Shown here piece by piece: positions 1-41,478 of a stretch of DNA of 64,000 nucleotides; position 1 is the first letter of the stretch; the number at the start of each line of letters is the position of its first letter. The notes below the pieces were generated by a model. The model made no database searches. It was not told the origin of the DNA and saw nothing but the letters and a program-made list of their open reading frames with translations. The position numbers and the translations under genes are program-made. This DNA comes from Hormiphora californensis (taxonomy: Eukaryota; Animalia; Ctenophora): assembly GCA_020137815.1 (NCBI GenBank), contig CM035357.1, positions 7,812,001-7,876,000 of the forward strand, given 5' to 3'.

Positions 1-122
1 CCACATATACCTCCTCGTGTGGCATGTCAACCACATGAAAAAAGTTTTAAAAAGTTGAATCTATCTAAAACTAGTATGGTAACAAATCAATATTACTTGA
101 TGGTAGAGCGGAGATAGAGGTC

Positions 123-3100
123 ACTTGGTTGGTAGTCACTGAACTACACTCAGCCAAACACTTGCTTTCTCCCTTATCAAAGATACAACTAGCACAGCGC
201 TCGTAGTCTTCACATGTAGTGCAGATCTGGATAGGGATATGAAAGGTCACACGAGGGGTTTCATTAGAAAAACGATAGAAAGAAGATACGTACGGTGCAT
301 TTGGTGCAGAGTTTCCCTTTCCATCCATCATTGCAGGTACATGTACCACGTACACAGGTACCATGACCACCACACGTCTTCCTTTCACCCTACATAACAG
401 TACGTGTTAGTTTTAAAGAACTAGAGAACCCGTCAACATGTTAGATTGAAAGATGTTTTACAAAATGGAGCTATCAAGATAGCCACTTTAATACTTTATT
501 TACTCACATCGACAACAGAGAGACAGGCATCATTAGAGTATTGGCACGCCTCCCCTGTATATGTCCCATAACATACACACTTCTCTTTCACACACGTTCC
601 TGAGAGGAAACAATATAGCAACATATAGTTATTGACTAGCCGATCTCGTTTCATAATTCGAACTTTCATCACTATGAACCATGGACCTCACCTCGATCAG
701 AACAAGCTTCAACCTTGAAACTATCACCATATCTAACTATCCCCTTGGGACAGTTTAGATGGTCGTACTGACAGTACTTTCCATACGACTGAAACAAAGG
801 ATTGTTAGATCTACTACTTCATAAAACTTTATGGTAACCATGGTAACCATGCTACTTACAAACGGTTGACATTTGCACTTTCCACACTGGCATTCTCCAC
901 GGTTAGAGCACTCCGGCTTGGCATTAGGACTCCGACTCTTTGGGTTGATACATTGGGTAAGAAGGCCATGGCTGCCCATTGCGCATCCACACTTATCACC
1001 TACCCAACCTGTATGAGGAGAGACCTGTATCAGCTATCTGGGACCTGTCAGGCCATTGCTCTGACCGCGGTTCAGGCCAATGCTCTGGTCATATAGTCTA
1101 GGGACCCGGGGGGTCAGGGATGGATCACATACCTTCATTACAGAAGCATGCCCCACCCTGATATGATCCATTACCATTACACTTTGTACTGTCAGGCTCC
1201 ACTGGGAGATCTATAGTGCACATCGTCTCCAGCTGAGGAGGGGAGAAAGAAAGGGTAGAGTGAGGGGGAAGGGGAAGAGGGTTCGTGAAGGGGGGGGAAG
1301 AGGGTGGAGTGAGGGGGGTCTCTTTATAGTTGGCCCTATTGAAGTTTGATGCAGAAGTGCGTTTTAGGAAGTCGTGAGTTACGGCTGGCCTGATAATAGA
1401 AACACCTTGAGGTTTAGGTCACGCTTGTGTATTAAAAACAGAGTACAAGTCGTGCCCTAGGAGACAGAGGGAGAATTAGAGATGGATAGGAGAAAGAGAG
1501 AACGTGGGAGAGAGAATGATAGAATAGTAGAACTATGATCCCACGTATCGTGACTACTATTGGCCGTGATGCGTGACTGTACAACGCTCACGCAGCGTAC
1601 TGCAGTTTGGATCATCAGCGCGTGGAGTTGCTTTCTCTCAGGACTGTGTGAGAGAGAGCTAATGGGTATATGACAAAGAGAGAGGGAGAGAGGAGGGGAG
1701 GGCACAGTCACAGCTTGTACGGCAGATTCTATCTGTGCAGCTGTGATCTGTTAGCTAGCTATAGGTTTTACATATCATGCAGCTTAAGTGGTATCATTTA
1801 GATCACGGCATCACGCCTATTATAAGATGGGAGAGAAGAGGAGAGCTATAGAAAGACGGCATTCATTTTATTCATCGGGTGACATATTACCAATCTGTAA
1901 CTGGAGACATTATTATGCAAAATGCCAAAATATCCAAAGTGACGTTATTGAATTCAATGTATCTAACTTGTACTTGTCAACTACAAACCTCAACGCCAAG
2001 TTGTCCATAAGCAGGGAAGTTGAGAAGGATATCACCCCGTGTATTATTTAGACATCTATCTGCACACACTGTTACTTGATAGGTCAGCTCAGTACCCGCA
2101 GCTACATTCTCACACCTGGGAGAGGAGGGATGGGGTGGGTTACTAAGTTGAAAAATATCGCTTTCGAACATTATGTCTGGTATTCAGTGGGTAATTATCT
2201 ACTGATATCCGGAGTTTCAGCCCAAACGGTTGAGCCACTAAAAGTCGCAAGCCACTTTTGTGACCCTTGTTTTCGGTGAAAAATCGGAAAAATCGAGAAA
2301 AAATTTTAAAATTTTAAAATTTCAAAACATGGAAATTAGTCCTTAGAACATCCCAATACACGTGCAAGACTTAAAAATTGTGTATTCAAAAATTTTCAAC
2401 TTAGCAACCCCTGGTTACTGGTTATTGACTTGTTGAGCAATAGCTGGAGTCAGTGGGATGGGCTTGTGGGATGTAACGTGACCTTTTGAGAACAATATAA
2501 TGGGGTGACATGGTACACACTCCCTATCTAGAAAGGAGATGTATATTGACAAGCTTTATACCTTGCGGATGAATCAGCGGTTGGGTAGCAGGTATAGTTC
2601 ACACTGACCCCCTCAGGGATTATAACTTGGTTCATAGTGGGGAACTCAACCAGCTCCTTGTAGTATTCTTCTAGCTTGAGATCCAGAGAACCAAGATCTC
2701 CAATACCGAATATCTGAACAACGAGGGGGGGGGGTGAACATGTTTGTAAACCCTCTCTCTAATCCTAATAATTACAGAAACCCTCTCTCTAATCAACACA
2801 CCTTTGCTCCAGGTATCATCTCTTTGATCATATCTGTGTTAACTTTGACCCCTGCTACAAATACAGGTATGGTGTTGTTCTGTAAGAGCTGGTTAGCAAC
2901 GTCAACCAGGGTCGGATAGTCCGTGGTGAAGGTGTACTTCCGTGTGTTACCTGGGAGGAAGGGAGGAGTTGGGATTAATGGTTTGTTCAAAACGGGGCGA
3001 GGAGAGAGGGTCCAGCAAGGAAAGTAATGTCTGCAACTTAATTTGAATTTTGAATCGAGGGGCACTTTGACAAACCAAATTCTTGGTAAATAATATTTCT

Positions 3101-4170
3101 AGCTGTATCTGTACCTGTGTTACACTTCTTATCAAATGGTTCAACCATCCCTGCTAGCTGTCCGTCCCCACCCACTCTGGGGTCCGAGGAAAGGACCACC
3201 AGGACCATTTTGTTACTAGCATACCTCCATCCAAATTGATCACATGCCTGGGGAATATGATGGTGTTACCATGGTTACCATGGGTTGCTATGGTAACTAA
3301 CTGTACCGGAAACAGGTACTAACAGATACTGACAGACATGTCTACAATGACTGACTGACAATAGGAATGCAATGATATCAACTGACCACAACACGATGAC
3401 AGACGCTATGACGAGGTTGCAATGTCGTTCTGCCCTACGGGGCAGAGTTTGGCACGCCATAACCTATCTGCACCACCACCACCACCACCACATGTCTAGA
3501 TTTACAGCCCTGTACTTACCAGACTCTGATAGATAGCATCCATAGCGGAATTCCCCTCATCGAACTTGTTAGTTGTATTGGTTACCATGGTATCCAAGAT
3601 GCTCTCATAAATCTTGTCATTGTTATCCAGATAGTTCAGCATCTTGAACGCGTAACTCTCCCCGCACGTCCCTTCACTAAGACACGTGTTCTCTGTCCCA
3701 TTGCCCCACTCAACCACAAATGGGGTGATATCACGGTCTGCAAAGGCCCCATACCCAAAGTTGGTCGTATTAGCCAGGCCTCCCATAGCAATAACAATAT
3801 CTTTAATGGCCGCATTGAATTTAGTTCGCAGGGTGGATGGAGTCTGTTGCTGCAGGATCATCAGATCTATTGGGTAGTTGGGTGTTGCACGTGCAAGTGT
3901 GGGTATAGTGGTGCACTGTCCGGGTCTCATTTTAGCCTTGACCTTCATAGGGGTGATCTGTGTTGCCTTATAGTACCCACTACCCACAAACACATTCTCG
4001 ATAACTTGCTGAGATGGCTGGTAGTTGATCAGGTTACTGCACCCTTCTGTTAGGGTACTGTAATATGTGAGACATCTATAGTTATCCCAATCATCATCAG
4101 CACACCACGCACACTCACTACCCCGTCCCATACATCCATTACCACTCTCTGCGTCCCAACACAAATCATA
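123..4170 (-). CDS. Integrin beta-type ectodomain portion of the giant gene (PSI, hybrid, beta-I, I-EGF1-4, beta-tail)
   Basis: PSI: CMGRGSECAWC..RC..GCSNLI. Hybrid entry: TQITPMKVKAKMRPG. beta-I: NYPIDLMIL, NFGYGAFAD, AMDAIYQSL, DYPTL. Then RCENVAAGTELTYQVTV; I-EGF exons KCNGNGSYQGGACFCNEGWVGDKCGC, ECSNRGECQCGKCKC..YGKYCQYD, CSDRGTCVKEKCVC..YTGEAC, CGGHGTCVRGTCTCNDGWKG; beta-tail CEDYERCASC. The order matches integrin beta subunits. Confidence 0.9.
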
Positions 4171-7100
4171 GCCAACATCCTGGAGGTTCTTAACAGCTCC
4201 CTCCACCACTATATCATAGCTGATCTCATCGACACTACCATCTGTGTAGGTCACCACTACGAAGTAATTCCCGGAATCAGTCTTCTGTAGGTTCCCAATT
4301 TCCAGGAATGTACCACCCTGTTTTATGTAGTACCTACCATCCTGCGATGTGATCTGATACCTGACACCGTCTATTGTATAGTACCACTGGATCTGATCTC
4401 CTGGGTTTATAGAGAACGGGATGATCAGCTCAATGTTACCATCTTCAGTGGCCTCGCACACAGAGTGACTTGTAGCCTCCACATAGGAACATTTATCACC
4501 CGTCTTCTCTTCTTCCTCTTCCTCATCATCCTTTCCTCCTCCTTCAAGGTCAGGACGGTTAATACCACCACCACCACCACTGCTGCTAACCTCGACCTTC
4601 CAAGGATAGGTGATCACATAGTTCTCGTTGGATGTGTAGGTGACCTGTCCGTAGTACGTATCCCCATCACCCCTACTAACACTACTGATCACCAGCACCC
4701 CATCCTCTAGTTTGTACTTGTACCCGTCTATCTTAACAAACTGTTTAGCACCGTTAAGTATGGTATACCACAGAACTTGTTTCCACCCTGTGTACAGCCC
4801 AACAGATACCTGACACTCTTTATCAGTAGTACATTGCTTAGTTTGAAGGACTGGTTGGGGGATGACCGTGACATTAACAATTGAAGATGTTGTGACTCCT
4901 GTTGAAGGGTCAAGGTAAACCCCGTGGTACTGACCAGCGTCACTCTTCTGCAGGTTCACGAATGTGAGTGATCCATAGGTCTGTTGTAGGTAGAGGAACA
5001 CTTATTCTCAATAGGAGCCGAGGGACTGTGTGGTTGGGTCTTGTTTCAGCCAGGATAGCGGGGCAGGGATATCTAGACCACTGGATACTGTCAGAGGATT
5101 ATCCTTCATACCATACATACAACAGGGATAGTTCAAGAGGGTATACCCTGTATGTGTATGTGACTTCTTCCCCTGTAGTAGTTGTTAGCTTTGCGTAGTA
5201 ACTACCAGCATCATCCTCACCAAGGTTCTTTATAACTAGATTAGAGCCAGGTAACTCAAACTTAGTATTGGCTGAGACTTTGTCTGTCAGAGTGAACTGG
5301 TACCATCTGATCTTCTTTATCCTCTCATCAGGGGACAGTTGGACAGTGCTCCCTACAACCCGATACACAAACACAGTGACAGATCTGGAGAGGCTCTGCT
5401 CCGGACATGACTCTATACACACTCCCTCTACCAGGAAAGGGATGGACTCTGGGGACAGGCACAGGTTTTAGGTTGGCAGCTAGTGAAGGTATTAGAGTCC
5501 ACTGTCTCGGGGCAGGTTCGTGTCCTGGGTGCACAGTACTCATAGTACTCCTGGTTAGTGGGACATGTGATAGGTGTAGCATCAATACATGTGTCATAGC
5601 TGACACACCACCCATCAGTGTTTAGATAGGGTTTACTAGAGGGGCACCCACAGACATCAGTTAGACATGATGAGGGACATGGTACCCCCATATCAGTACA
5701 CGTGGTGTTACACAGTGCACACTCGTTAGTGTATAGCACCATATTAGTGTCACCACCACACCCTCCACTGGGGCAGTCCTCCCGGGTAATACACCGACCA
5801 CTATACTCAATAGGGGCCTCAGTAGGGCACCCACACACATTCCTCCTGCACTCACAACTGGATACAGCCCCACCCTCACAGCTCTCCTGACAAGGTGCAC
5901 ACGTGGTAGGGCCGTGATACACGTACCCCTCCACCCCATACTGTGCACAGGGGTCTGCAGTGTTAGCAGGGCAGGCTGCACGTGCAATACACTCCCCGTT
6001 ATGGAAGACAGGGGTCTCAGCGGGACATGCACATACACCCTTCCTGCATTCAAAAAGGCAGATTTGGTTGGAACATGTCTCCTGGCAGGGTGCACAGGAT
6101 GTGTCGTAGTATCTCATGGTGGCGGGACAAAGACGAGGTGAACCAGCACCCAGTACTATCAGTTGGAATATGAAACTCTCGTCCCTCCTGCCCTCCGTGA
6201 AGTAGATATTGACCCTGGTGGGGGGAGTGAGCTTAACTTGTAGTGAATATAATCTAAAACTATTATGGGAGGGATGGTGGGATATTAGTGAACTCGAGGC
6301 GAGAAACCAGTGATATAAACTAAACCCTGGCCATCAATAACGAACCTATAATAATATCCCTGAGTCCAGGCCTCTAGTTACCATGGTAACCACTAACCTG
6401 TAATAACCCTGATCCAGTTCAACAAGTTCCTGTTTAAACAACTCTCGTGTAGTATAGGATGGTAGCTGAATACTGGTTGTGCTGTTGAAGTAGGTCCAAG
6501 TGTAGAAAAGGGAGTTGGGTTTATTGTTTACTGACAGGGTCAGGTTCTGTCCCTCGTATCCTGTGTGGAATGTACGGATGATAGGGGTGGGAAAGGGGAA
6601 GAGGGTTTGGTTTGTTGTGGCTAACTAGACATGATCTGCGAGGAGTTTCGGGAGGGAAACAGACTACAGAGGATCTCAGAATCATATTCAAATCATGGTA
6701 GGTCTCATTAATTTGTAAAAAGAGATGAAAACATCCGTAATCACTGGATCAGAGACAGTGAAAGTAGTTCTCCCACACATTGTGGCGACAGTGTAATTTT
6801 AACTGCTGACATGACAGCAAGCAGTGCAGTAAGCAGTGCAGTAAGTGCATGTTTTTGACAGTTGATTGAATTAACTCATCATCTCGTGAATGAGAAACAG
6901 AATAAACACAGTTTTGTTTGGTTTTTTAGTTTGTAAAGCATTAATAGTTGTTCTGATTTAGAACTCGAATCTCTAACCGCAGAGCGTGGAGTGATTAGGC
7001 TTGCTGAGATAGATTTACCTACACCTAATTCTAATTCTGTTTTTCAGCATTTCTGATATGGTCAGCAAGTTATCTAAAATAAAGCGCATGATGGGATGGA

Positions 7101-10100
7101 AACAGAAAGTCAAGAAGCCATTTATTGTTATGATCGGTGATGTTGGTACCGGTAAATCTACCATCGTTGAAAAGATAGCCGAACAATCGGGACGAAGTGG
7201 TGATGCTACTTTCAGTCTTACTACCCAAAGTGAGATATTCTGGAGCTATGATGGCTCTATGATAATAGCGGACACCCCGGGCTGTAATGCAATACAAGAC
7301 CCCTTCACACATAACCAATGGGTTGCCAGCGCTATAAACTTTGCTCCTGTTTCCAAGATCTTCATCATTGTTAAAGCCGAGACCAGGATAGATAGCGTGG
7401 TCTCTAAGGTGCTTCAGTACAACTCTAAGCTGCTGGAGATTCCTGAAGAGTTAGTGGGTGTCCTAGTATCTCACATGGATACTGTTAAATATATTGACAA
7501 GCAACTGAAAGATAATATCCTGGAATTTTGCCAGATAAAAGACGTAGTTTTGACGAGTAAGGATGAGGCACGTCATCTCTTACTGAGAAATCTCAAGAAA
7601 ATGAGCGAGAAAACGAAACCGATAGACTTTCAAATTGACGGAGAATCATTTCTCAAGATATTCCGGGTGGAGCCGAGAGAGAGGAGAGCACTGGCCGCTA
7701 TTGACAGGCGAGTTGACCACTTTCTAACTATGAAGGAGGATTTCGATAGCAACATTATACCGGCATACCAGGGTAAAGATCTGATAGATGTCCTCTTTGC
7801 ATTCCAAGCCTGGATGGCTGATATATTGGCTAAGATGCAGAGTGATATGTGTGTGGAGCTGGGTTATGACGCCACTTTCTCAGGTCCTAACGGCAACACA
7901 GAGGCGGCACATTGTGCAATGTTAGCTAACAGACTCCGTGTTATAATGTTTGAAATCAGGAAACTAACAGCCCATCACGCCCAGAGGAGTGCCGTGGATG
8001 CCAGGGCGTGTAATCACTGTGGGTTTGTGTGGGTGAAGGTGGAAGGGTGCGAGGGGGCTACAATCTGTGGTAATAAATCTGGAGATCTGCCAACACCAGT
8101 TGATGTGAGGAACACTGCTTTTACCACTGTTGGAAGGTTCAAATTCAACTGGAACTCTGTTAAACTGTTGATAGAGAGGACTACCAACACTGAGGTACAA
8201 CTCCAGGCCACCGCAGGGAAGGACAGGGTGGGGTGTGGGAGAACAATAACCTGGTGCAACATGCCCAGAGTCAACACATTAGATCTAGAGGATGAGAGTC
8301 AGGCACCTCGACAGGATGGGAGTGAGGTCCTTCCCAAGTGTGATGGGTACAAAGATAAGTTGGAGTTAGAGATAGAGGCTAAAACTGAGAAGTTACAGTT
8401 GTCAGATAGTAAACCTGGACCTAGCAAGTAATGTATGGATATATCTAGATCATAGCAGTGACTGACCTTCATCATGGCAATAATCTATGGACGAAAGAAA
8501 CCACCTTCAAAAACAGCCCAACCCCCCCCCACTCAATTACCTATGACGATGGCATCCCCACCGGGAAGGAAGTTGACTTGAAGGTAGGTCACATAGTATC
8601 TGATAGAGTCAGGGTAGATCAGCTGAGCAATGTAGTAGCCTTGTTCGTGTAGTTGCACACCATACAACTCCAGGGAGTCTACACCAAACTGAGGGAGGGG
8701 AAGATCACAGTGTCAGAGCCGTAGTGGAATACAGTGTCAAAATAAGTTTTGTTGCGGGTTTATTGTCGTCGCGTTAATGAGCTTTGAAATAATATTTTAT
8801 TATATTTTGTTAATTGACTGTTGATTTTCCACAAACGCATTTCCAATTTTCAGGACAGAATAGGTTCCTATTACCTGAAGCCTTGGAGTTTCCTTTGTAA
8901 GACGTACAAACAACCCCCGATCACTGTTCCTCTTATAATGCCAACTAACACTTGTGTAACCCTTGGGCATGTCTTTGAACCTGAAATATTAGAATAATGA
9001 GTCAGACTAGGCGAAATCAAAAGGGCTTAATCACCATTTGCATTTGAAGTGAATGTCAAGGAAGAAACCCAGATGTACATTGTACCCTAAAAAGTTTCTC
9101 CCTATCCCATACCTGATAACTACATCATAGTTCACATAAGACTCCAAGACCCTGAAGGGGGATGGCAGCCGATCCACAGTCACCCTGTATACATGTCTAA
9201 ACGTCTGTAGATCAGTTTCAACTTCTGCTTCATACACCCCCGCATCACCAAGTGTAACCCGTGTGAACACCAGGGAGGTGGCAGTAGGGAGGATAGTTCC
9301 ATTATTATCACCGGATAGTTTAGATCTCACCCCTGATTGGGACACCCTGTACCAGGTAGTGGTTGTAGTTGTGGGTTCAGGGAGGACCAAATCCACCTCC
9401 TGGTCCTCTATCACGTTCATAGTGTACTCCTTAACTACTTGTGTCTAGAGAGAGGGAGGCATGTTAGAGGGGTATGTTAGAATGTTAGGTGAGGTAGAAA
9501 CAATAACTATTTTTCAGTCATTGGGCATGGATGATATGATTCAGGAGAAGGGATAAAAAGAAGGGGAGAAATATATGGCGGTCGGCGGATCATAGAGTGA
9601 GAAAATAAAATGGTGCCATTTTCATTTTCAAGAAAAGTATAAATGGTACCCACTTAAGAAGTTTAATGAAAGTTAAATGGGTAGGAGAAAAAGAAAGAGG
9701 TCAACTCTAAAACTCATTAGAAGAAGGTAGAAAAAAGAAGAAACAGCAACAAAATGGAGCATTCAGAGATTTCATGCAGCACAGGTCATAGCCCCAACTC
9801 ACATCTTCAACAAATATCTGGAAGGCATGTTCAGACTGCTGCTGGGATCCAGGGTATTGTACAATTGCAATGTAGATCCCATCATCAGGTCGGGTAACGG
9901 AACTTATACGAACACTGTACGCATCAACCTGGGGGGGGGGGTAGTTTATTGTGGGGTTAGTGGGATTTGTTAGACTCATCTATGTCAATTGAATAGCCGT
10001 GTGATAGCAGATCTCCCTCTCTGAAATTGTACCTGTGTCACCCTACTCTGGTCCAGATCGAGAGGTCTGAGAAGTCCATTTTGTACTCGATACCACGTCA

Positions 10101-13100
10101 TAGCACTGTACTGAGAAACCTGGGAGAGGGAGAGATGGTAACCATCGAGAAAGGGAAAGATATGGTCAGGAAATAATACAATATGAGTTCTGAAAAACTG
10201 ATCAGAGTACAGTACCTTGGAAATCTCCATAATGACCTGTTCCCCGACCTTGCGTTGGAACTGTTTCAGATCTCTAAGATGAACACCGTTCAGACTCCAG
10301 GTGTACTGGAAGGAGTCCGTCAGGGATATGTAGATACCTGGGGAGAGGTTGGGATATTGGGTCCTGCAAAGGGGTGGGGAGAGAGGGATAGAAAGTGGGT
10401 CCTACAGCAGTAATTAAACAACTAGGAGACATTATTATACTTGGTATGGTATAAATGTAACCCCAGTTACTATAGTTACCCCAGCTGGTTATTCTAGTTA
10501 CCCTAATTACCGGTATCAGAGGGTCGAAGGGTGGAGATGGTTAGGCCGGTACTGGTTGTAGTGAAGCGGTCCCCAGTGAGCTCCTCTAGTGGTAAAGGGG
10601 GTTTCGTGTACTTCAACCAAACCCTGGGGAATTGGATTTTAGAACTTAACATCCAACACACCACTCTCTCCCTATTTACCTTCGGGAAGTGCTGGGTAGA
10701 GATACATCCAAACTAAACACTCCTGTGTAAGTCTGTTGAACAAGAGGTGTCTTGATGCCTGTTATCCGTAGGAAGGTATAAGAATATTGGTCCGTCACCT
10801 ATGAGAAGATTTAATACTATGATGGTTAAAGAATAATTCAGTCTCACCTCGCAGCTTTCAGTCTGCTGCAGTTTATTATTGTGTGCCCAGAACCGCATAG
10901 TCCGGTGAAGATTCAAATATTATATTGTGATCAAAATATGCACCCGCTAAGAAGCAAGATAATATTAACGCTCTTAATTGTATAATGCTACCTTGTGAAC
11001 AATGTAGTAGTCTCCCTGACTAGCGGTTGTTAGAGTTCGCACCGATATCTCGCTTTCATTCTCGATATTATCTTCAAGGAGTAGCATATCTTTCCTGCCC
11101 ACCCTGTACAACTGGTGAATTGCAGGGCTGATAGGGACAGAGAGGGGGAACCCATACACACCATACACTGTCCTTCTAATCACTTCATCTCCAACACCTG
11201 GGGAGGGGTTCAGTTAGTTTGGTCTGGACATGAAACATGCTAAAAAAGAATTGGGTAGCGACTACTTTGTTATGGTGGGCCTAGCTTTGTTAGGGACAGG
11301 GTTGAACAAGGCAACTCACCAGTTAGAATGTAAGTGAGGGTATCCCTGCCCCTCTCTGCTCGATATGTTGCTACTTCACCACCTCCCACAGGCTCCACAC
11401 CCAGGACAGGACCAGGGCCCATGGACTGCCTCCCACCACCTCCCATTACCCGGTACCATTGGGTAACAGTGTTGGTAGTGGTACCAGGTGATATGAGAGA
11501 TAGGGGCATACCAGCAGGCACCCACATCCTTATTGTTGGGTCTCGTACCTGTATCATGTGAGAGGTGGTAGTTACTTATTTTACTGCAGTAGACTCCTGG
11601 CTATACTTATTGGTAACCCTAGTATTTCTAGGTGAACAGCCTCACCAAAAATTGTCTAAACTAGCTGACCTAATTACTGATTAATTAACTAATTAATTAC
11701 CTGGACAGGAACAACCCTCCATCCCGCTAGAGGTGTTTTAATGTTAGCTGGATCATAACACAAGTACACCCCAGCATCAGTATCCTGAAGTTTCTCCAGT
11801 ACCAGAGTCTCTGTATCCCTCCCTCCCACTATACTGGTGGTGTCTGGGAAGGAGTCCAGGATAGCCAGCCAGGACCTGCATGACCGGCCTGTTAGAATGG
11901 TATCCTCACCAATCGGCCGCTCCAACCTCGTCACAGTCGGCAGAGAGGAGTGGATCTGGGGGTGGGGGTCAATTTACCGTAGTACATCATACTATTATTA
12001 AAGCAAATAGGGAAATCCAGTGTAACGTTTTTTACCAAATATGGCATTTTGCACGTGCAGGTTTAGAGGTGGAGTCTACTAGCTGGAGTGGGGCCAGGGG
12101 TGGGGAGCCGTTACCAAGGATCGTTACTATTGTAGTGCAGTTGCACGTGCATCTGATCTTGCTTTGTATTGCGTCACTGTTCCAGCTAATTATATGCTCT
12201 CTTCAACAACTGCTGATATACGACAGCGACAATTTGAGTTACTCATGCAAGATCCGACCGCCGTTCTCTACTTTTCCATACACTGAGGGAGCAGCAACAC
12301 AAGAGAAGTGCAGAGAGAACGAACAAGGCGTTGGAGATTAAACAGAACCGATGATCAATCTCAGAGATTGAGGCAGATGACCACAATCTGACGAAATGCG
12401 AGGAATCTGCAAAATAGTAAGTTCTTTTATCACTTTGATCATCTTCTGGCGTTCTAAAACTCACAGCGATCCCGCCTGGGCTCCTTTTACGTTGCCGTAG
12501 GGATAGTGCATGTCAACAGTTCGACTGGTGATGTCAGTATTTCCTAATCCAGCTACCATTTCCGCGAAATTCGCCCGTAGGGCGAACGGGTTTACTAGTA
12601 ATCAATAATCATGATAATCCTTATTATAATTTGCAAATGCGTGGCGTGGTGATGATGTCGTATCCCACGTGCAAATAGAGGGGGGTTGCCAGGGAGGTGC
12701 CCTGGGAGGGGTATTGGAGATTGTGGGGGGATACTGCACGTGCATGTTGTTTGTTGTTTATTGCGTGTTCCTGTGTTGTTCCTGTGGTGTTTTGGGATCT
12801 ACTGCTGGGACCGCCATGATTGCCAAAGCCTTTCTACCTACGTACCGCGTTGATTCTATACACAGCTACAATTCTACGGATCTTTATCGCCTGATTCTAC
12901 ATGTTATTCAGCGGAATTTCCCTTGATGTTTATCACCAGCGCTCTACAACTTACCAACCTCCGTATTCTTTACCCCGGCATAGAGAGACAAAGAATGAGA
13001 GGGGGGAATAAAGACATAGAGACGGGTGGGGGGGCTGTTGTAAGGCTACAATGGGCTTTCTAGTGTGACAAAATACTTTAAAGGAAATCATACCATAAAT

Positions 13101-16100
13101 AAAAATGCATTTATTCAGAAATGCATAAAATGCAGTTCGATTTACTGGGTAGCTTTCATTCAATTCTATTTACTGGATTATATAGCTTTCATACCGAACA
13201 ATCGTGTCTGAAGACCTCTAGCTGTCCAGATCCCTCTAGAACACCCACTGCAACGTATTCCCCTACTTCTGAGATACTGGCCTTCTTGACCAGGAGAAGG
13301 AAACCATTCTCCCTTATCTCGTACTTAGCAGATGGGACCACTCTATTGGGACATAGTTCCAGTTTTCATTGTACAAGAACCCAATCTACCCTTCCCAGTA
13401 TTTCGAATTAGTTTAGAATTAATTAGGAATTTTTTACCTCTGCATAATGCCTGCTGATAGTCGATACCAGACAACACTAAGGGGTTGGGCATCAAATACG
13501 GCTCTGATTGCAAAGTTATATCCCGCTATCATAACATTAACAGAGGGCATCTGTAAGGTGTTATTAATTATTCGATTTTTTATTAGTGGACCCAGGCCAT
13601 CCTACAGATGGCTAACTTAACAATTGATTGGTTGCTAGCAATCGATTAATTGCTCAAGCAACTATAAAATATCCCTCTTACTCGTTCTTTTCATATCTCC
13701 AAATTTCCTCTTAGTCCCACCTCTCTCTCTCTCTCTGCTATCTCTCTCTCTCTCTGCTATCTCTCTCTCTCTCTCTGCTATCTCTCTCTCTGCTATCTCT
13801 CTCAGCTATCTATCTCGTTCTCTATGGGAATGACGTTTTCTCTAGATTGTAATTCCTCGCTCAATAAATAAAATCTGAAATTGTGTCTTTTATTTCCATT
13901 GTACCATAATTGTACCACTATAAAATCATTGTTGTTTGGAATACAGTCAAGCGTGGAGCTATATATTTCTCTTCGATAAAAAGGGACTTTATTGTACTCC
14001 TCTTTGCTCTACATTATATAGCTAGTTCACTAAAGAGTGTTATGAATGGTTCATTAGATAGTTCTTTACAACTTATAGTTCTCTCGACTCTCGTGCCACG
14101 GTGTTTTTATATACTCCTAGAGAGAACCCTATCTATAATAGATCTACCTTCAATTGCTACTTAGCTGTATGTGCCCACAAGAAACCCATACTCCCTACAA
14201 AAAAGTAGTATTCTTACCGGTTCATTGATGATAGGAACTAGCTGGTACACGGTGTGGTGAATCACGCCATTTTCCTGGGTTGCGAAATGATAGTAACCAC
14301 GGTGGGTAGTTGCCATGAAATCTCTGATTTTTAGAGTAGCACTATCATCCCTGACACCTGAAGAGAGAGAGAGAGAGAGAGAGATGCTTTGTAATTGGCC
14401 ACTGGTCAGTTAACTTGTTTAATAATAAAAGCTAGTTCACGTGATCCCTACTAGTTCTTAACTCGAGAATTGAGTCGCCAGACACCTTGTAAAGTATGAA
14501 AAATTCAACACGAGACCCCCTATATTATACCTGGTAGAGAGTCTGCGAAGACTGTCTGGCCGCCTCCCTGGGTCGTGGTATAGAGCCATCTAGTTGATCT
14601 CCCTGACCCATTGTACAGGACAATACCAGCCCCTCTCAACACATACTCTGTGTTCTGAGCTGCAAACATCTCCACCCGGCTTACCATGTACGATTCAATG
14701 GGGTTCCTGTCGTAATACACCACGTAGGTACCTGGGGGTTGGGTGGAGAAGATAGGGGTGTCCCCTTCTCCGAGAAAGGAGCAATAGTTATGGGTGGTAA
14801 CTGGTAAGTAGATAAGGGAGGCATGTAAAATCAGAGGAATGTGTCCTACCTTCACTTTGAATGGTAAGTCTATCAATGATAACAGCACCCTCGGCACCAG
14901 GTTTCACCTCCCTGCTCTCACCAGCCCTCTGGACCATCCAGGTGACGGGTTGACGGGCTGAACTGGTCAACACTACCCGGTACCCGGTGAGAGATAACAC
15001 GGGGACGCTGTCCAGCGCTTCCTGATATTATTTAGAGATCAGACACATCTACATATTTGAGTGTAATCAACAATTTAAATTGTGATTAGTTAACAGCAGT
15101 TACACTGACCTTGATAACCTTGACATCCCACGAGACCCATGACAACCCAGAAGAGGGGGACTTGGAAATGTAGAGTCGTTCATCGGAGTCCTGCAATGAA
15201 ACAGATTTAAGGGTACACCTGGCGTTTTTCATCATCGAGTGCCCAACCAAATGACTTCACCAGGGTTTAGGCCATGCAAAATGGACCTCAAATATGCAGT
15301 TTTAGCCCTAAAGTCGAATTCATATTTTTGCTACAGCCTATTTTCAAAGTGGCGTTTTTTCAATTTTTGTTGAAATTTTTAACCTCAGGACCACTTTTTT
15401 TGAGATAGAAACATTAAATTCTTGGAATTTGAAGAGAATATAAAGGTGAATAAGCCCAAAGAAGGATTTTTGAAATGGAGCTTATTTCTGGCCATGAGAA
15501 CGGTTTACTTTTTTGCTTCTTTGACACGCTAGCTGAGAATGTTCCCATGCTTCATTAGAGATGAAAATCTGGAAATAGTTGCTCAAAACGATTATCTATG
15601 TGGCCCAAAAATTTTGGAACTTTCCCACCAAAGATGTGGTGTACAGAGCTTTTTTTGTGAAACCTGTCTTTTTGAAAAAGAGGGAAATTCCCTGTATCTC
15701 AAAAACGGATGATCGTAGAGACCTGGGACCAAGCTCAATCGATTCAGAAGGTCCGATTTTGGGGGGGTCTTCTGAGAGACATTTTGCTCCTACTCCAACT
15801 GTTTTTGCTGTAATTGCGAAAAAGGTATCAGCAAGTAAGGGGGAAATCAGCCCGAAGCAGGCTACTAGAATAGAGTTGTTTCCCCTTTTCATAGAATTGG
15901 TTTTTTGCAATTACAGCAAAATCGGTTGGAGTAGGAGCAAAATGTCTCTCAGAAGACCCCCCCAAAATCGGACCTTCTGAATCGATTAAGCTTAGTCCCA
16001 GGTCTCTACGATCATCCGTTTTTGAGATACAGGGAATTTCCCTCTTTTTCAAAAAGACAGGTTTCACAAAAAAAGCTCTGTACACCACATCTTTGGTGGG

Positions 16101-19100
16101 AAAGTTCCAAAATTTTTGGGCCACATAGATAATCGTTTTGAGCAACTATTTCCAGATTTTCATCTCTAATGAAGCATGGGAACATTCTCAGCTAGCGTGT
16201 CAAAGAAGCAAAAAAGTAAACCGTTCTCATGGCCAGAAATAAGCTCCATTTCAAAAATCCTTCTTTGGGCTTATTCACCTTTATATTCTCTTCAAATTCC
16301 AAGAATTTAATGTTTCTATCTCAAAAAAAGTGGTCCTGAGGTTAAAAATTTCAACAAAAATTGAAAAAACGCCACTTTGAAAATAGGCTGTAGCAAAAAT
16401 ATGAATTCGACTTTAGGGCTAAAACTGCATATTTGAGGTCCATTTTGCATGGCCTAAACCCTGGTGAAGTCATTTGGTTGGGCACTCGATGATGAAAAAC
16501 GCCAGGTGTACCCTTAAGATAAGTAACTCTGGGTCCTCTTTTATTAAAATCCTGAATCGTAGTCATTGCTGATCACTAATTATCTGTTATCAATTAACCA
16601 CCACTAACCTGTACGCTGGAAATAACAAGAGATCCTTGCTTCACGTATAGCTTATCTGCACTCAGTACTCTCTCTAACACACCTCCTCTCTCCATATACC
16701 ACTCTGTCTGCTGTCTCTCCTTCTCACCCAACGTTACCATGGTCCCCCTAACAACGGTTACCATGCGCCGGTCCGTTACTGTTACTATGGTTACCACGAA
16801 CTCGTCCACTTGTCCGGTACTGTCCGACACGTAGTATACTCCTAGAGGGTGGGTAGTGTCTTCATCAAACAACTATGCAAGAATAAATGCGATAGAGAGA
16901 GAGAGAGCTTGAGGCTTAAATAGGTGCAGTATACGGTGTAGTAAGCCATGTCTTGCAGTGCCATTAGACAGCGAATGCCGGGGTATTGGGTAAAGGCCGG
17001 TATAATCTGAGTTGTACCTGAGTTGCGGGGTGTAACTTTATTGATGATGGCCTGGTTACCATACACCTTCAGATCGTCACTCAGTGCTGAAACAACCCCA
17101 GTTGCAGGATCTCTCAGGTACCAGTGAAGAGGAGGGTTCAGAGCAGTTGTCATGGTTACTGTTGCTTCCTCTAACACATACAGCTCAAACTGGGATCCTG
17201 AAAACATGGAGTGAACTGAATTGCAGCTGTACCGTGGTACTTTTAGAAACAAGAAATATATTGTACATAATATCCAAGCACGATTCTCAAATATAATATG
17301 CTGCATCGGCCTTTTTCTTCTTCTTCTTCTTCGTAGAGGCTGTCTCAGCCCCGTGAGGGGCTGAGATGAAGGGATGTAGCACAGTGGTTACGTTCCCCAG
17401 CCTTGAGGTACCCCGACCAGAAACTCGGGATTTCTTGGGTGTACTTCTTGGAGTCGTAGTGTTTTCTACCTAGAGGACGGGGGAGGGTCCTCAGGGTGTA
17501 GTAGTTTCTCCGCCCTTCGGTAAAACGTGACGGTTTTTTGGAAGGGCAGGTGGTTTCTTATGTCGTCTAAAGTCACGCACAATTTATCGAATACTTCTTG
17601 TCGAAGTTTCCACAATAGTGGGCATTCTGTGAGTACGTGTTTGACAGTTTCGTCCTCCATCCCACACAGGTTGCAGGTTGTGGTTTTGACTTTTTTCAGT
17701 TTTTTCATATGGTAGTTTAGATTGCCATGTCCCGTGAGAAGGTGCATCGGCCTTTATTTTCTCAACCATTCTCAGCAATAAAGCATGTGAATTTCTCTAG
17801 CACAGTTTTCACTTTAACACAGTATTTATTTGAATATATTCATGTCATATTTATATTCTCGTTATGCTTTCATAACCCGTCGCTGCTCGAGATTGTCTGA
17901 GCGATTAAATAGATGTAGCGTACTGTGAGACTGTAAGAGAAGAAGAAGAAGAGAGGACATAGATCTTTGTCATGTCCCCCTTTTTACAGAGCCCTGCCTC
18001 TTTGTGAAGACTACATGCAGCCACAACTTTAAAGATGGCTAACCATCTTTAAAGTTGTTGCTGTAGTCTTCACAAAGAGGCAGGGCTCTGTAAAAAGGGG
18101 GAGATGCATTGTTGCAATGCTCATATTTAGTTATAGTCAAACTAACATCAAACTATCACGTAGGATGAAATGGCTAATATTCCTCTGTTGTGTTATATTC
18201 CAAGGTAATCAAGTGATAATGTCCTTATATAGTGTTACGTAACAGTATATTGCTATCAATCAATAGAACTGCACATCATGTGATCTGTTACAGCTGTTAT
18301 CTCAGTCAATAGAACTTCACATCATGTGATCTGTTACAGGTTGCTGGTGTTCTTTGAAACTGGTTGATGAACGTTCCAGGAGTCGGGGTTATGGAATCCT
18401 CACATACACAGACGCCCAGGTGGGTTACAGCTCCGGTATAAGAGACTGTAGTTTAGTTGTTCTGAGTCCTCATAATATCCCCCCTTTGTAACAGAGTGGT
18501 ACAAGAGGTCTGGTGATTGATGAGGGGTTTACAGAGAGGCATGCAATGGCGGTGTGTCGTTCCCTCAACTACACATCAGTTAACACTTGGTATATCACGG
18601 AATTCCCTCCCCTCTTCACAGAGCGATTCAAGGTACTGCAGTGCCAATATAGTAGACACATGACATGCTGACAGAAACAGACCGAGTTGTATTGTTAATT
18701 GATTCATTAACTGGACCTCAACATACCACAGGGACGATTCAAGGTGACTGGCAGGATACAGAATGGCACCGAGCTGAACTTTAAATCTGTCCGTGGGATG
18801 TACAGCTATGTTACCTATGTGGTCTGCAACCCTTTTCCACAAGGTATAACGTTATAGTGAACCGAGTGAGTGTAGAGCGTGACGTATACACTTTAATTTA
18901 ACTAGTAAGCCCGCTCGCCCTACGGGCGAATGTCGGGGATGGTCAATGGTCATACAGTAAACTAAGCAAATAGTGTAGTATCATTTGAAATTTTTAAAAT
19001 CAGTAAATTTATCAGGTAAATTAACCACAGCGATTCTTTAGACAGAAAAACCACGGGTCCTCTTTTGCCAGGTCCTGAAGTATTTTATGAAGGAGCACAT

Positions 19101-22100
19101 TTGCAAAATACTTTCACGTATTACTGCCATTTCTTATTAGTGCCATTGATACTTTGTTATTACGTGTATTGACAACATTTTTTGAATAATAATCACATCT
19201 TTTGTAGGATTCTATCACGTACCTAGTCTATAGGCGTCAGCGCCAGTTTGGGACATATGGCTCCTCCAAACTCGCTGGCGATTGTGTTGAAGTTGAGTAG
19301 TCATGTTCACGAAACGTGGTGAACAGGGGGTGAACAGATCAAATCGAGCAAACGATCAATCACACAACCGGCAGAGATGAATCAAGGATGCACATTGCAC
19401 GTGCAGTTTAAGGCTCAAGCTAGCAGGTTGCCAGGGTCCCTCTAGGGACAACACGTGCAAAAGGCCATTTCCAGGAATTTTGTGCCATATTTGGTAAAAA
19501 AACCATCACCCATCATTTCCCTATTTGCTTTAATAATAGTATGATTTACATATAATATTCCCTGCAGATGCGTGTGAGTTGAGGATAAGGAATGGTTTCC
19601 AGAAGTCCGCCTGTGGCCGTATTTTTGGTAAAACTCTGTACAAGTGTCTGGAGAGTGACCAGGTTTATGTTATAGTTGATGGCCACCTCCCTCAACCAGG
19701 GATAGTGTCTACGAGGTGCAACAATGACCCATCCTTTTATCAGGTGAAGGACTGTCTGGGTCAAGTTGTAGACCAATCACGGGTGGATTTGTTGAGTAAT
19801 GCTACAAAACATGTCTCGTTTTTACTGAACAATAATTCAATTCCAGGCGTGCGGGTTGACGGATGTGATATCCCCCACCGGTCCAGTCTGCGGTCAGGTG
19901 ATTTGTGATACAACCCACCCCTACCTCCTGACTCAAAAGATGGCGTGCGGTGAAGAATTTTGCGGGTTTAGACCCTGTGGACATCAAAATGCGGTAACAA
20001 AGAAATAGTAGATCATGAGACTCACGGAAAATTCAATTTGAAATTGATAAGTTGTACACAGGTGTAACCTTGTTTAATCTTTGTACAGATCGATCTGAGG
20101 GCTTCATGTCCCAACCTGGACTACTCTTCATGCAGTGCAGTTGGACCCAAAGTGTCCAACAATACAATCCATGATGATGATCACTGCGATGGCAACTGTG
20201 ATCACTACTCCTGCGAGGACGAGTCAGAGTGTGATGGCGTGGTGTACGGTATCAGATGCACTGTAAGTAGAGTGGTAGATTATAGGGCCCCTGGATTCAC
20301 CGGCAAATCCAAAATATAGTATAAAGCCGAATTTTTTGAAGTTGCCACCCAATCCCAATGCCCTCTTCCTCCCTCTCCAGAAGTACGGTCTGCCCAACAA
20401 GTACATCCAACCTTCGTTCTTGTGTGATAGTTTCACACACTGTGATGCGGGAGAAGATGAAGATAGGACTATGTGTACCAATACTTCCTCCCTTCATTGT
20501 ACCAGGAGTGTGCATGAGCATCGGAGAGTTAACATGCCGATTATTAATCGGTGTAGTGCCCCATTTAGTGAAGGGGTCTACAAGCCACTGTGTCTCGACT
20601 CCATGGACCAGACTAACTGTTCAGGTAGTTGCCATGGTAACGAATATTACATGATACGTTGCCATTATTTACAAACTATTTGTTACAGGTTCAGAAGCTG
20701 CTGGGTTGACCTGCAAGATTGATGGATACTGGAGCACTGTCTCTAATACCGTCCTCTGTATCCTCCCACACTCCCCATTGTGTGATAATGGGATGGACCA
20801 GGAATGTGCCAGGCTATCTACCTCCTGCTTCCTACACAAACACTTCATTTGTGATGGTATCCCACACTGTGAGGACGGGGCTGATGAGCAGTGTCCCCAT
20901 CTAACTAACTCTACCTGTCAGAGGTACATAGTGAACCAGCCCCCACACCCCATCCCTACCCCTTGGCTGCTAGATGGTGTGACGGACTGTATCTCCGGTC
21001 TAGATGAACTACAGGGTGTCTGGCCAGTGTGTGGTGTTGGTAGGAGGAAGAGGTTCGTGGTGGATAACTCCACGTGCAATGAGGTATACTATTGCACAGG
21101 GAGGGCTGATTTCTTGGAACTCAGCCAACTTTGTGATGGAGTGGAGGAGTGCGGGGAAGAGGTGGGGGTGTGTAAGGAGAGTCTGAATCAGGTTAAGGTG
21201 TTCTCCAATCCAGTAAAAAGTAAGGGTGATAGTATCTATCTGTCTCATTGTCTCCCAGGGCTAAAGGGTATTCTAACATCTGACTGTGTAGCACTGACGG
21301 TCCCCAAGAGGAAGGGACTATTAGAAAAGGGCATGGTTAACACCCTACACATCACCCCTACTAACTGTAATTTCCTGTACGGGGAGGCCTATGTGCGGGT
21401 CAGCTGCTCTAACATGTGTCTGGATACAACAACACCATGCCCCATCACCCGCCGTCTGGAGTATGATTCCTGTACTCTTCAGTACCCTGACAGGACCTAC
21501 ACCCTGGCAGACAACTCCTACCTCACCTTCCTCCTTCCAGGGGAGGATGAGGTGTTCCGGTGTGCCAATAACCGGTGTGTGACCCTCTCTGCAGTGTGCA
21601 ACTTGGCTGACGAGTGTGGGGATGGTAGTGATGAGAGGGAGTGTAGGAACAACTTCCAGTGCAGGGATCAATCTAAATACATCCCCCTGTCCCAGGTATG
21701 TGATGGATCCCCTGATTGTGTGGACTTGTCTGATGAGTGTAATGAACAGTGCAGTGTGGAGGTTTTATCAAACATACCATATTTGGTAGTGTGCTGCGTC
21801 CTTGGTTTCCTAGCAACCACCCTCAATATCGGGGTACTAGTATCACTGTTAGTGACCCTATATAAAGAGGGTGCTAAAAAGAAGGTCCAACTCTACAACC
21901 GACTACTGATACTTCTCATCTCCTGTGGAGACCTCCTAACAGGCTGCTATCTCTCCTCAATAGCCATCACTCACCTGATATACAATGACTCCTACTGTAC
22001 CCAGCGATACACCTGGCTGACCTCCAAATACTGTGCAACACTGGGGGTAGTCAGTACTATCGGGACCCAGATATCAGTCCATGCCATGGCCATACTGGGT

Positions 22101-25100
22101 GTAACAAGACTGGTAGCGGTGAAGAACTCTCTGAGAGACTGGAGGAATATCGAGACGGTGAAGAAGTCAGCACTGGTCAAGATTGGGTTAGTGTTACTGG
22201 GGGTAGTATTGGTATGTGCTAGTTTTGCTATTGTCCCCCTCATCCCATCCCTAAGAGATGTGTTTGTGAATGGTATGGTGTATCCTCAACATCTTCGCCT
22301 CTTCGCCGGGACTGTCGACAAGATGACTCATTGGAGGGTATTCAGAGCCTATTTCGGATATCTATCCTCAGTGACGTTGTCATGGGAACAAGTGGAGTCC
22401 CTTGTCAGCGAGATGTTCAGTAGGGACTACCAAGATATCTCCCAATCTATGGTTCACTTCTATGGTAGCAGCGAGGTTTGTCTGTTCAAATTCTTTGTCT
22501 CAATATCAGACCCCCAGCGCTACTACACGTGGGCGCTAATTGGTGCTGACTGTGGCTGCTTCATCACTACTACAGTGTGCTACATGATAATCAATTACAG
22601 GACACAACTAGCTACAAGGACCCTGGCCCAGAACATGAACGCGGTGAGGGACAGGAACAGGAAACTACAGAACAAAGTGCTGATGATTGTTCTAACTAAC
22701 CAGATCGTCTGGTTACCCTTTGTGGTGTTGTGCAGTCTCCATACTGCTGGGGTGGTAGATGCGGGGAGGTGGTACGTGTTTATCTCCATCTGTATCCTAC
22801 CCCTCAACTCGGTGATCAACCCCTGTTTGTACAACACTGAACTGTTTGAGAAGGTGATGGGGAAGGTGTTATCTTGGTACACTGTTCCTGATTTCCAGTT
22901 GATGAGGAGAATAAGGGTTTGGACAAGTACCAGGAAGGATGATATTGGTCCTGTTGATATTGAATTGGGTCCAGTAACTGCAGGGACTGGTTTGGTAGCT
23001 CAGGTTGTTCCTACATGTTCCGGAGTTGATTTAGACATTCAAAGTCAAACCCCAGTTGGAGGATGCCAAGGGGTGGCTCCAATTATACCTCGGAAACGGG
23101 CAGGAAGTTTACCGATCACTCGAATGAAACTAATGACTATAGAACCAAGTAACAATGGGCTGATACCGAGAAGAGGGAGGACCGTGAAACAGTGTCAACT
23201 AGATGATGGTGGAACTGTTAGCAGAAGACATTCGGTTAACTAAACATGTGTCAAAGGGAAGTAATTTTGATATCTCCTTCTGGTGATCAACAGACACACA
23301 CGCCCTCTGTACAACAGTTTAATGGGGAATCTCACACATACACGGGCAGAACTCGGTTAAGGAGAGATTAATTAGTATTCTGAATAATGAGTTCAGAGCA
23401 AGAATTAAATAGGGAAGAAAATCGAAAAATACTGGGTTTGACCGGGAATTGAACCAGGGACCTCCAGAGAGACATGCTCGGAGCTATAAACCACTAAGCT
23501 ACCAAACCCTATATAGGGTTTGGTAGCTTAGTGGTTTATAGTGGTTCAATTCCCGGTCAAACCCAGTATTTTTCGATTTTCTTCCCTATTTAATTCTTGC
23601 TCTGAACTCATTATTCAGTAAACATGTGTCTGCAAGAGAAGTATGTTTTGGGATAGCAATTTTGGGTTGACGATCCTTCTGGTGCACCGTGGTAAGGGTG
23701 TCGGGTGATAACACCAATATTTCAAGTTAAGTTACAAGTTGCATACCTTTAATTTTCTCCAGTAAGAGCTCATAAATGAAGTGTTGAGTTATAAAATCCT
23801 CTGAGATTGTAGCTTGGTAATATCCCTGGTCCGATAAACCAAACGTTTCTATCACCTGCAAAGAAGGTTTAGTTGGTCCGGTGAACTGGGAGATCATAAC
23901 CTGTACGAGGTACTTGAAGTCCTGAAATATTCCAAGTGGTATAACTTACTAGGCTGTCCCCTGTTGCTGGCAGCTTGTTCGTGATACCCACACCGCTCTC
24001 TGGGTTGCCATGATACTGCCATGTGACACCACCAGGTGACACTCTCACGGGTAATGTGATCCCAAACGTAGCACCTGACCTGATAGGATGTGAAACTATT
24101 AGGGGGGGGGGTGACACACATTGGGGGCCTCTGAATGGCACAATACTTTTAATATCACTCTAAAAACTTTACCGTTGTCTAAAGTTCATATTTTTCTTTA
24201 CCAAATGGACTATTTCAGCCCTGATTTCCACAGTCGATGACATCGGAGGCTCAAAACATCCGCAAATTAGTAAAAAAGTGTATGTTTTAACCCTAGAAAT
24301 GATTTAAAACTTTTAGATGTGTTCTAGAAAGACACCAAAGTCGTTCAAATTACTTATTCACCAACCGTCTTATATATTTTGTAAATATTTTGTAAGAATT
24401 TGTAACACTTTGTAACAATTTGTAACACTTTGTGACACTATGTAACACTTTGTGACACTTTGTAACACTATGTAACACTTTGTAACACTATGTAACACTT
24501 TGTAACACTATGTAACACTTTGTAACACTATGTAACACTTTGTAACACTATGTAACACTTTGTAACACTATGTAACACTTTGTAACACTATGTAACACTT
24601 TGTAACACTATGTAACACTATGTAACACTTTGTAACACTATGTAACACTTTGTAACACTATGTAACACTTTGTAACATGTGCAGAAAACTTTTTGTGCAC
24701 GTTACATGTTACAAAGTGTTACAAAGTGTTACGTGTCACCCCCCCCCCTATTAACATATCCCAGTCTTCAGACTTACATACCCGTCTTCTAAGTCATTAA
24801 GGGAGGGCGGGACGATTTTTTATTTTTAGATATTTCGTATTTGGTTTGAATGCGCTTTTATGAGCCGCAAAAACACTATCAAACAAGCTTTTAACAAATA
24901 CAATAGTTGTTAAAGACTTTTAAGAGTTTTTGCGCCACCCCCTCTCTTACGATGGTGAGCATAATGAGGACGTGTTTCATAATAGCTCGATTTAAATCTC
25001 GAGCTGCTATCCTCCATTACCTGATGTAGTAGACAACCTTGGCCACCATAGGCAGGACATTTAGTTTGTAGTATCTCCACGATCTATCTGTCACCCGCAC

Positions 25101-40100: not shown

Positions 40101-41436
40101 GAGTATTTGAACCTGTTATTCCCTCAACTCTGAGTAGAACGGGACGGAAGAGCGTTCCCTCTACCGGCATCGATCCCGCACCTAATATTTGAATGAGTTC
40201 TTTGATCGTGAAACCAAGGCCAACTAAAAAGAACAATTTTTTGGGGCCTATCAACCCTAGTTTAAAACCTCATTATATAGTGAGAATTGACCCTAGTTTA
40301 ATACTTAGTTCCTCCTCCAGAAAACTTACCAGCAGGATCTCGGACGGACAGGACAAAGACTACTTGGGTCTTTTGGGAGCCATAATCCAGGATGGCAACA
40401 TAAACCCCAATATCCTGACTGCAGGTCGTTTGAATTTGCATATGGTGATTCGTGATACTGAACTTGCCTGTAGAAAATTTAATAAACATGGTGATTAGTT
40501 GTTCTTATGCTGCTAGGATTTGAATATTAATGAGCGGCATCCTACTCCTCATATAATAGAGCTGTGAGATATAAACACAACCGTCAACCCAACAAGTCAT
40601 TTTCTGTACACACATCTATATGCAAACGATCCAGAGGGGCAAGTGACTTTGTTTTTTAGCTTTTTCTTTCCTAAATTCCCAGGAGCTCTGCATTATATAT
40701 GCTAGTTTCAATTAGGTTATCTAACCTCATCACCCCATATTTTAGAGTTTCATCATGAAAATGGTTTTACTACTCCTGACACTACTTCTACCAGCACTGG
40801 GTAGCGACCAGCAACTTTTCAATTCTCATCGGCGATGTTTTCAAGTACTCTAGCGAATAATACTGCTACCAAAGCCATAGATGGAAAATTCACCGCATCA
40901 AATGCACACTCGGTATGCAACGATAAGGAACAAGAGATCTGGATGGAGCTAGAGTTGAAAAACCTTGCTTTGGTTACCAAGGTTACCATCTACCCATCTC
41001 ATACTAATGATCAAGAAAATACCTACGAACGACCTGACGGAGCGAAAATATATCAGGTATATGTAACACTTGATCTGCCAAGCCCTAGTAGAGGTCCCAA
41101 GCATTTATTTAATGAATATTATTTCAGGTGACTCCCGAGGGAACGGAGGTATTTTGTGGATCGTATCATCCTGACTGGGATATCAAACCAGAATACTACG
41201 AGGTCCCTTGTAAACAACAAGACGTGCTCAGTGCGGGATTGATGATTCGTTTAACCAAGACCGGAACCGCATGTTTGCATTTTAAGGAAATTGAAGCTTA
41301 TGGCTCGATAGTGGGTAAGTCGAGAAGAGGACAGCATGGGTAACTGGTAAATTATAAGGGATCTTTGAAATGAAAATTGAAAAAGGGGAAGAGGGTAGGA
41401 AAAATAACTTCTGTTGGGCCCAGAAGTTTTGATAGA

Positions 41437-41478
<42 letters not shown>

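Follow-up and report, generated by a model that had tools for sequence, protein, structure and literature searches.

Can an integrin beta subunit remain useful to an animal once the residues that hold its ligand-binding cation are gone? In integrin betas, the DxSxS motif and the glutamate of the PEG segment coordinate the MIDAS cation that binds ligand carboxylates, and the DD pair forms the ADMIDAS. In the current study, we analyzed a stretch of 64,000 nucleotides from the ctenophore Hormiphora californensis (the window), the minus strand of which encodes an integrin beta with PSI, hybrid and beta-I domains and EGF legs. Here, we ask what has become of its metal sites, what the rest of the subunit retains, and how the protein might act.

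Gene structure

Both altered segments singled out by the original prediction exist, in one minus-strand frame that aligns to integrin betas. This frame is a single ORF (3502-5001) containing Ig domains, the PSI domain and the first half of beta-I; the conserved NYPIDL (3879-3862) lies in the same ORF as both altered motifs. The beta-I part of the ORF matches Pfam PF00362 (E = 2.3e-9), and when 4230-3520 was compared with solved structures, the 57 distinct sequences matched were all integrin betas, with beta6 at the top (E = 1.9e-15). PSI and beta-I identity is given by matches to PF17205 and PF00362, respectively, and the EGF leg repeats by PF23105 in the window and by PF18372 and PF23105 in P0001, a Pleurobrachia bachei gene model that is the nearest named protein (96% identity). 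P0001 aligns exon by exon as far as position 95 (tblastn) and provides the parts that lie past the window edge, namely, EGF legs, transmembrane helix and tail. Joined, the four beta-I exons give 366 codons with 0 stops (Table 1).

The P0001 model omits about 33 residues of exon 2802-2950 (minus strand), the DYP segment, which the contig of run X1 (see below) and both orthologues keep; this is likely a gene-model error.

Table 1. Features of the integrin beta gene in the window
Feature	Position	Strand	Evidence or remark
Further exons: hybrid, integrin EGF repeats, start of beta-tail domain	95..2138	-	P0001 tblastn; PF23105 E 8.6e-7; gene leaves window at left end
End of beta-I and start of second hybrid half	2561..2713	-	X1 joints, P0001 tblastn
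Beta-I exon with DYPT (canonical DYPS)	2802..2950	-	X1 joints, alignment
Beta-I exon with GWR, LSSDPR (D251 -> S, H255 -> R) and GDGQLAG	3115..3247	-	PF00362 E 3.2e-6; X1 joints
PSI, first half of hybrid and first half of beta-I	3520..4182	-	3' end of large exon 6214-3520; structure and Pfam matches, X1
TNKFDEGNSAMDA replacing SGNLDxPEGGxDA	3535..3573	-	Alignment; E220 -> N at 3552-3550
FADR: SyMBS D158 kept, K159 -> R	3733..3744	-	Column is D in window, P0001 and P0002; Y in P0003
Beta1-alpha1 loop LQQQTPSTLRT replacing the DxSxSxxDD MIDAS/ADMIDAS motif	3823..3855	-	Alignment to betas
Four Ig domains immediately before PSI, same exon	4190..5430	-	Profile matches, contigs
Cysteine-rich TIL-like repeats	5446..6214	-	PF01826 E 0.12 only, below cutoff
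Ig exon spliced onto large exon	6398..6562	-	Joint 6213/6397, GT..AG ends, X1
Upstream array of cysteine-less Ig exons, inferred same gene	8536..46958	-	Profile matches; spliced X1 pieces
Candidate start and signal peptide MLPLILVLALLQGGVTTTSGE	47124..47186	-	Sequence

The Ig and TIL-like array

Fusion of an Ig array to the beta, which had been predicted, is real for at least five domains: going upstream from PSI, there are four Ig domains in the large exon, then the TIL-like repeats, then the spliced Ig exon. The Ig domains match I-set at 28.1 bits, above the cutoff; the TIL-like repeats reach 13 bits with PF01826 against a cutoff of 24.5, in three stretches. The usual F-strand cysteine is missing in 28 of 29 F-strand motifs. 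An iterated profile built from these Ig domains and run over 1,583 frame segments of both strands gave 51 matches (some weak, and including the five fused domains), every one of which lies on the minus strand, from 46958 down to 3505; 43 of them cover the E and F strands, and no segment of any match holds a membrane-spanning stretch. A signal-peptide-like start is found at 47186. Spliced X1 contigs join upstream Ig exon 10990-11194 with 9166-9444 and 14529-14708 with 11698-11955, and the contribution of run X9 to the upstream Ig exons is limited to three short pieces. That about 40 Ig domains form one chain of about 5,000 residues from a single gene is something we can only infer, because none of the contig pieces listed bridges the upstream Ig exons to 6562. 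No full-length protein of 2544 to 5000 residues was found among 3233 candidates, a weak negative in that the chain may exceed 5000.

Within the array, about 250 bases are duplicated in tandem at 15579-16145, giving two near-identical frames.

Loss of metal-site residues

Residues are numbered as in beta3, with D119, S121, S123, D126, D127, N215, D217, E220 and D251 taken from the available portions of PMC3792891 and PMC8275161, and D158 and P219 placed with the help of the consensus in the available portion of 10.1101/2020.04.29.069435. At these positions the window protein has Q119, T121, S123, R126, T127, D158, K215, D217, G219, N220 and S251. The codon changed from D119 to Q lies at 3849-3847, and the D251-to-S change is in the next exon, at 3193-3176 (both minus strand), beyond the coordinates given in the original prediction. 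The MIDAS motif and its glutamate therefore read Q-Q-T-P-S and N220, and the ADMIDAS D126/D127/D251 reads R, T and S. In the SyMBS set (D158, N215, D217, P219 and E220), two of five residues are kept in the window, one in orthologue P0002 and none in orthologue P0003. Loss of the metal motifs, as originally described, thus holds for most ligands but is not total, since S123, D158 and D217 are kept and S121 has become T. The E of "DEGN" was tried as a candidate for E220, but the alignment would then require a gap ahead of the conserved DA, and the orthologues have no counterpart of this E; lying two positions before E220, where the orthologues have Q and G, it is not the conserved glutamate.

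The family comprises three divergent members known, and the expectation that orthologues would share the substitution was borne out. P0002 (47% identity) and P0003 (40%) have the same architecture as the window gene, their models end at the same intron, and they carry H or Q at 119, V121, R126, G219 and N220. R126 and G219-N220 are new residues common to the window and both orthologues, with G219-N220 present in four of four family rows. None of the 175 and 4 pattern matches from scans of metagenomes was a relative, and a search of proteins below 798 residues gave three matches, one of them a fragment from the tail of the P. bachei protein, and no new orthologue.

For comparison, 1.84 billion representatives were searched with a profile; the best 150 of the 774 matches consist of two family members and 148 other betas. 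Among these 148 (best 150 of 774), the core ligands D, S/T, S/T and E are all kept in 143, three of them in four and none in one; position 119 is D in 147 and position 220 is E in 145. D126 and D127, however, are retained in just 84 and 87 of the same 148 (best 150 of 774), so the ADMIDAS change by itself is not unusual. Of the columns conserved at 80% or more among the 148 betas (best 150 of 774; D126 and D127, alignment columns 244 and 245, fall outside the test), at least two of the three family members keep 1 of 8 ligand columns versus 31 of 40 others (Fisher P = 0.001). Betas with equally few non-ligand columns kept (29 to 32 of 40) hold six to eight of the eight ligands, versus one or two in the family, and two partial beta rows with fewer columns still hold five and six.

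One other protein, P0188, is an otherwise ordinary beta that keeps DxSxS and is without the PEG glutamate and D251.

Judged from these alignments, beta-I has replaced most of its MIDAS, ADMIDAS and SyMBS ligands. Cation-dependent binding is very unlikely because D119, E220, D126 and D251 are replaced together, and canonical binding at the MIDAS in particular is very unlikely because the cation sites are dismantled in three divergent orthologues in which the fold and the non-ligand motifs are kept; on this point we concur with the original prediction. For reference, the available parts of two papers report that D119Y alone removes fibrinogen binding by beta3 in patients (PMC8275161) and that MIDAS mutations abolish integrin ligand binding (PMC3792891).

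The former ligand face

The integrin part had been portrayed as a pedestal for the Ig array. The term may undersell beta-I, in which the identity of P0001 to the two orthologues is 51 and 41%, compared with 49 and 42% in the Ig part. This level matches that of the Ig part, and the face that formerly bound ligand carries new residues that do not vary, which points to a constrained role for beta-I rather than decay. One suggestion is that the top of beta-I has been repurposed as a metal-free, neutral-to-basic site (Q118, Q120, R126, R159, G219 and N220) that binds either an anionic ligand, with mesogleal glycans and mucins as examples, or a segment within the same protein. All six of these residues are identical in the window, P0002 and P0003, and the charge of the loops has been neutralized: summed over the three MIDAS-face loops, the net charge comes to +1, +2 and -1 in the family members, whereas the 148 others (best 150 of 774) have a median of -5 and do not exceed -1. 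The ctenophore mesoglea is, moreover, reported as mucins and polysaccharides in the available part of 10.64898/2026.02.02.702917. We nonetheless regard such a site as unlikely; the remaining loop residues vary in length and sequence among the three members, the invariant ones could be structural fill for the missing ions, and the ligand is hypothetical. Repurposing is, in any case, compatible with the reading that we prefer (see Discussion) and not exclusive of it.

Fold, alpha interface and tail

An AlphaFold2 model of orthologue P0005 has a beta-like predicted fold (Foldseek E = 2.6e-20 to integrin betas; Z = 22.0 to beta1, with an rmsd of 2.4 A over 203 residues). Mean pLDDT is 58, and the region from PSI to beta-I, mostly at 70 to 95, is the only confident part. 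Because the underlying alignment is dominated by canonical betas (94 in 100 rows), this fold is partly obtained by construction and indicates compatibility rather than proof; with that proviso, the beta-I fold is predicted to be intact.

GWR, GDG and DYP are kept in the window, P0002 and P0003, as are most cysteines. All three members likewise have L262 and G264, and two have K261; in the window, this position (K or R in canonical betas) is occupied by Q. At H255, three of four family rows carry R or K. The GDGxL and DYP motifs, we presume, face the alpha propeller or the alpha interface. P0001, which alone provides this region (the exons lie outside the window), has a single transmembrane helix with the G-x7-K spacing seen in 75 of 96 full-length betas, and one NPIY motif in its tail. 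The membrane-proximal K-x6-D clasp (D723), present in 79 of the 96, is absent from P0001, where a cysteine-rich stretch stands in its place; the tail is cysteine-rich and has about 290 residues. In beta3, the clasp aspartate pairs with alpha R995, according to the available part of PMC8275161.

The missing clasp aspartate, the long cysteine-rich tail and the Q at 261 in the window could be taken to mean that no alpha subunit is required: the protein, monomeric or homodimeric, would be an Ig adhesion molecule for which the integrin part supplies only a stiff stalk and an anchor in the membrane. We consider this distinctly unlikely, given that three members have GDG, L262, G264 and DYP and two have K261, at positions presumed to lie on the alpha interface, and that the helix keeps its G-x7-K spacing.

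Residual acidic residues

A further alternative is that other residues rebuild a cation site and that binding is still metal dependent. The window protein keeps the acidic residues D158, D217, E218 and D253 near the sites, so one residual cation is possible there, and S123 and T121 might assist; P0003, for its part, has D127 and D251. However, none of these acidic residues is common to all three members, and P0002 has 0 acidic residues in the three MIDAS-face loops, where each of the 148 other betas (best 150 of 774) has at least three. We therefore hold a rebuilt site to be highly improbable.

Reliability of the sequence and expression

The X1 contig, of 3,948 bases, skips four introns with GT..AG ends (2714-2801, 2951-3114, 3248-3519 and 6215-6397); on the basis of these four joints, we read run X1, which is labeled "DNA?", as RNA, possibly from the same sample as the window. 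Over 3519-6213 the contig differs from the window at 32 places, all at 5013 or beyond, and at 0 in the three following exons. Because none of these differences falls in the beta-I exons, the motifs in the transcript are identical to those of the window, and because the spliced contig carries the same letters, the altered motifs are not an assembly error. An intact DxSxS, which would speak for the canonical site, is absent from the spliced X1 contig, which has the letters of the window, and from the orthologues. A compensating frameshift within the motifs was considered as well and is ruled out by the spliced contig. DNA contigs from two samples span the motifs without gaps, each with three to six differing letters at unlocated places.

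The frame of the window does break at about 5000-5450, owing to extra letters at 4996-5018, 5103, 5438 and 5446; contigs are without them, and P0001 reads through. Those at 5438 and 5446 are missing in the contigs of four runs, and in X2 and X3 are missing in part of the depth only. The extra single letters at 4996-5018 and 5103 are errors of the window assembly. Allele differences in the TIL-like part are almost all silent (29 synonymous and 1 nonsynonymous; pN/pS about 0.01), a ratio that covers 30 scored differences, the other 2 of 32 lying in the frame-broken stretch, and that reflects selection on the gene and not on beta-I itself.

That the locus is a pseudogene or an assembly artefact, as the breaks might suggest, is scarcely credible in light of contigs free of the extra letters, a P0001 open across them, four spliced GT..AG introns, synonymous changes at 29 of 30 allele differences and open orthologues. 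The gene is a real, expressed and conserved integrin beta by architecture, yet not a canonical cation-dependent one.

Other genes in the window

An intronless ORF of 471 amino acids (7016-8428, plus strand) lies inside an intron of the integrin gene on the opposite strand and encodes a GTPase domain (MMR_HSR1, E = 3.4e-6) and a cysteine-bearing C-terminal part. Further copies are hinted at by two contigs, one of run X4 that links 6563 with 7182 across opposite strands and one of X7 that leads from 8095 back to 7057. Two more ORFs are found on the strand opposite the Ig array: an intronless one of 862 amino acids (20655-23240, plus strand) with LDL-receptor A repeats and a rhodopsin-family 7TM region, within the array, and a potassium-channel ORF of 340 amino acids (45659-46678, plus strand; BTB_2 and Ion_trans), between candidate first Ig exons. 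On the minus strand, there is an intronless ORF of 355 amino acids (51098-52162) with several hydrophobic stretches, GPCR-like by eye and with no Pfam match at E = 0.01. A filamin gene (55699-59300, minus strand; PF00630, E = 3.7e-25) lies upstream of the integrin gene on the same strand, which is probably coincidence.

Comparison with known systems

The ctenophore protein has in common with metazoan betas (beta1, beta2, beta3 and beta6) its PSI, hybrid and beta-I domains, EGF legs, tail domain and predicted fold, together with 31 of 40 conserved non-ligand columns and, as seen in P0001, a single transmembrane helix and one NPxY. It differs from them in that D119, E220 and most ADMIDAS and SyMBS ligands are replaced and in the Ig/TIL-like array before PSI, and the family, as seen in P0001, differs further in having no K-x6-D clasp and a long cysteine-rich tail. 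As described in the available part of PMC6889490, integrin beta8 (alphaVbeta8) is likewise a natural beta without one cation site, but there only the ADMIDAS is affected; beta8 keeps its MIDAS and binds RGD, whereas the ctenophore MIDAS is gone. A coral beta has EDL for DDL and an intact DxSxS (PMC2397394, available part). From the portion of 10.1101/2020.04.29.069435 available to us, the type II betas of Variosea amoebae resemble the ctenophore protein in their size (1405 to 3641 amino acids), extra domains including Ig-like ones and hypervariable MIDAS and ADMIDAS. Unlike it, they are not from animals, mostly conserve the SyMBS, carry LamG and vWD domains, and have Ig regions that occupy the place of the EGF legs.

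A parallel in design is a protein of the brachiopod Lingula anatina (XP_023933489, P0100; annotated as uncharacterized/integrin beta), which has Ig domains before a whole beta and keeps none of the four core ligands, the sole such case among the 148 other betas (best 150 of 774). It differs in having disulfide-type Ig and FN3 domains (five Ig and FN3 domains) and a Thr-rich stalk, six acidic loop residues, E, N, M and D at the four core MIDAS positions (E at 119 and D at 220), and a short tail without NPxY; it may be a fused gene model. Free trees (FastTree, quick and careful) place it apart from the ctenophore family, also in the best tree under a mixture model, but a single clade that includes it is not rejected: the test gave a p-AU of 0.672, with the higher likelihood, under LG+G4 (36 of 152 rows) and of 0.09 under a mixture model (28 of 152 rows). 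The Lingula design may have arisen independently.

A literature search, with subscription journals outside its scope, found no description of the ctenophore protein and none combining ctenophore, integrin beta and MIDAS. The available parts of PMC5395295, PMC13245172, PMC9729800 and 10.64898/2026.02.02.702917 contain no account of it, and nothing on it was found in those of PMC9856412 and PMC2119619.

Discussion

Our preferred reading, to which we assign a probability of roughly 0.55, is that of a spliced, conserved ctenophore beta that likely has no cation-mediated ligand binding, likely pairs with an alpha subunit and is anchored to the cytoskeleton, and likely adheres by means of its Ig/TIL-like array. 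With most of its cation ligands replaced, beta-I likely binds no ligand through a cation. Elsewhere the subunit is preserved, and it therefore probably remains able to fold, to pair with an alpha subunit and to attach to the cytoskeleton; the tail would bind talin through its one NPIY. The Ig and TIL-like array fused before PSI has probably taken over adhesion. An Ig domain is about 4 nm long, and the array would extend far past the reach of an ordinary integrin. One speculative possibility is that a pull on the array could shift the hybrid arm directly, which is conceivable because the array joins the PSI domain.

A bolder version, which we offer tentatively and think unlikely, is that animals built an integrin by swapping the metal grip for a tether. 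A chain of about 40 Ig domains (about 150 nm) on PSI would bind distant cells or matrix, and a pull would swing the PSI-hybrid arm and signal through the alpha-beta pair without a MIDAS step; the same solution may have been reached independently in a brachiopod.

The MIDAS is regarded as indispensable for ligand binding, and 143 of 148 diverse betas (best 150 of 774) keep it. A conserved animal beta without a MIDAS separates the scaffold and signaling roles of the subunit from its ligand site and would serve as a natural test of hybrid-domain movement and tail signaling without a cation-bound ligand. It may also bear on cell attachment in ctenophores, whose matrix is unusual.
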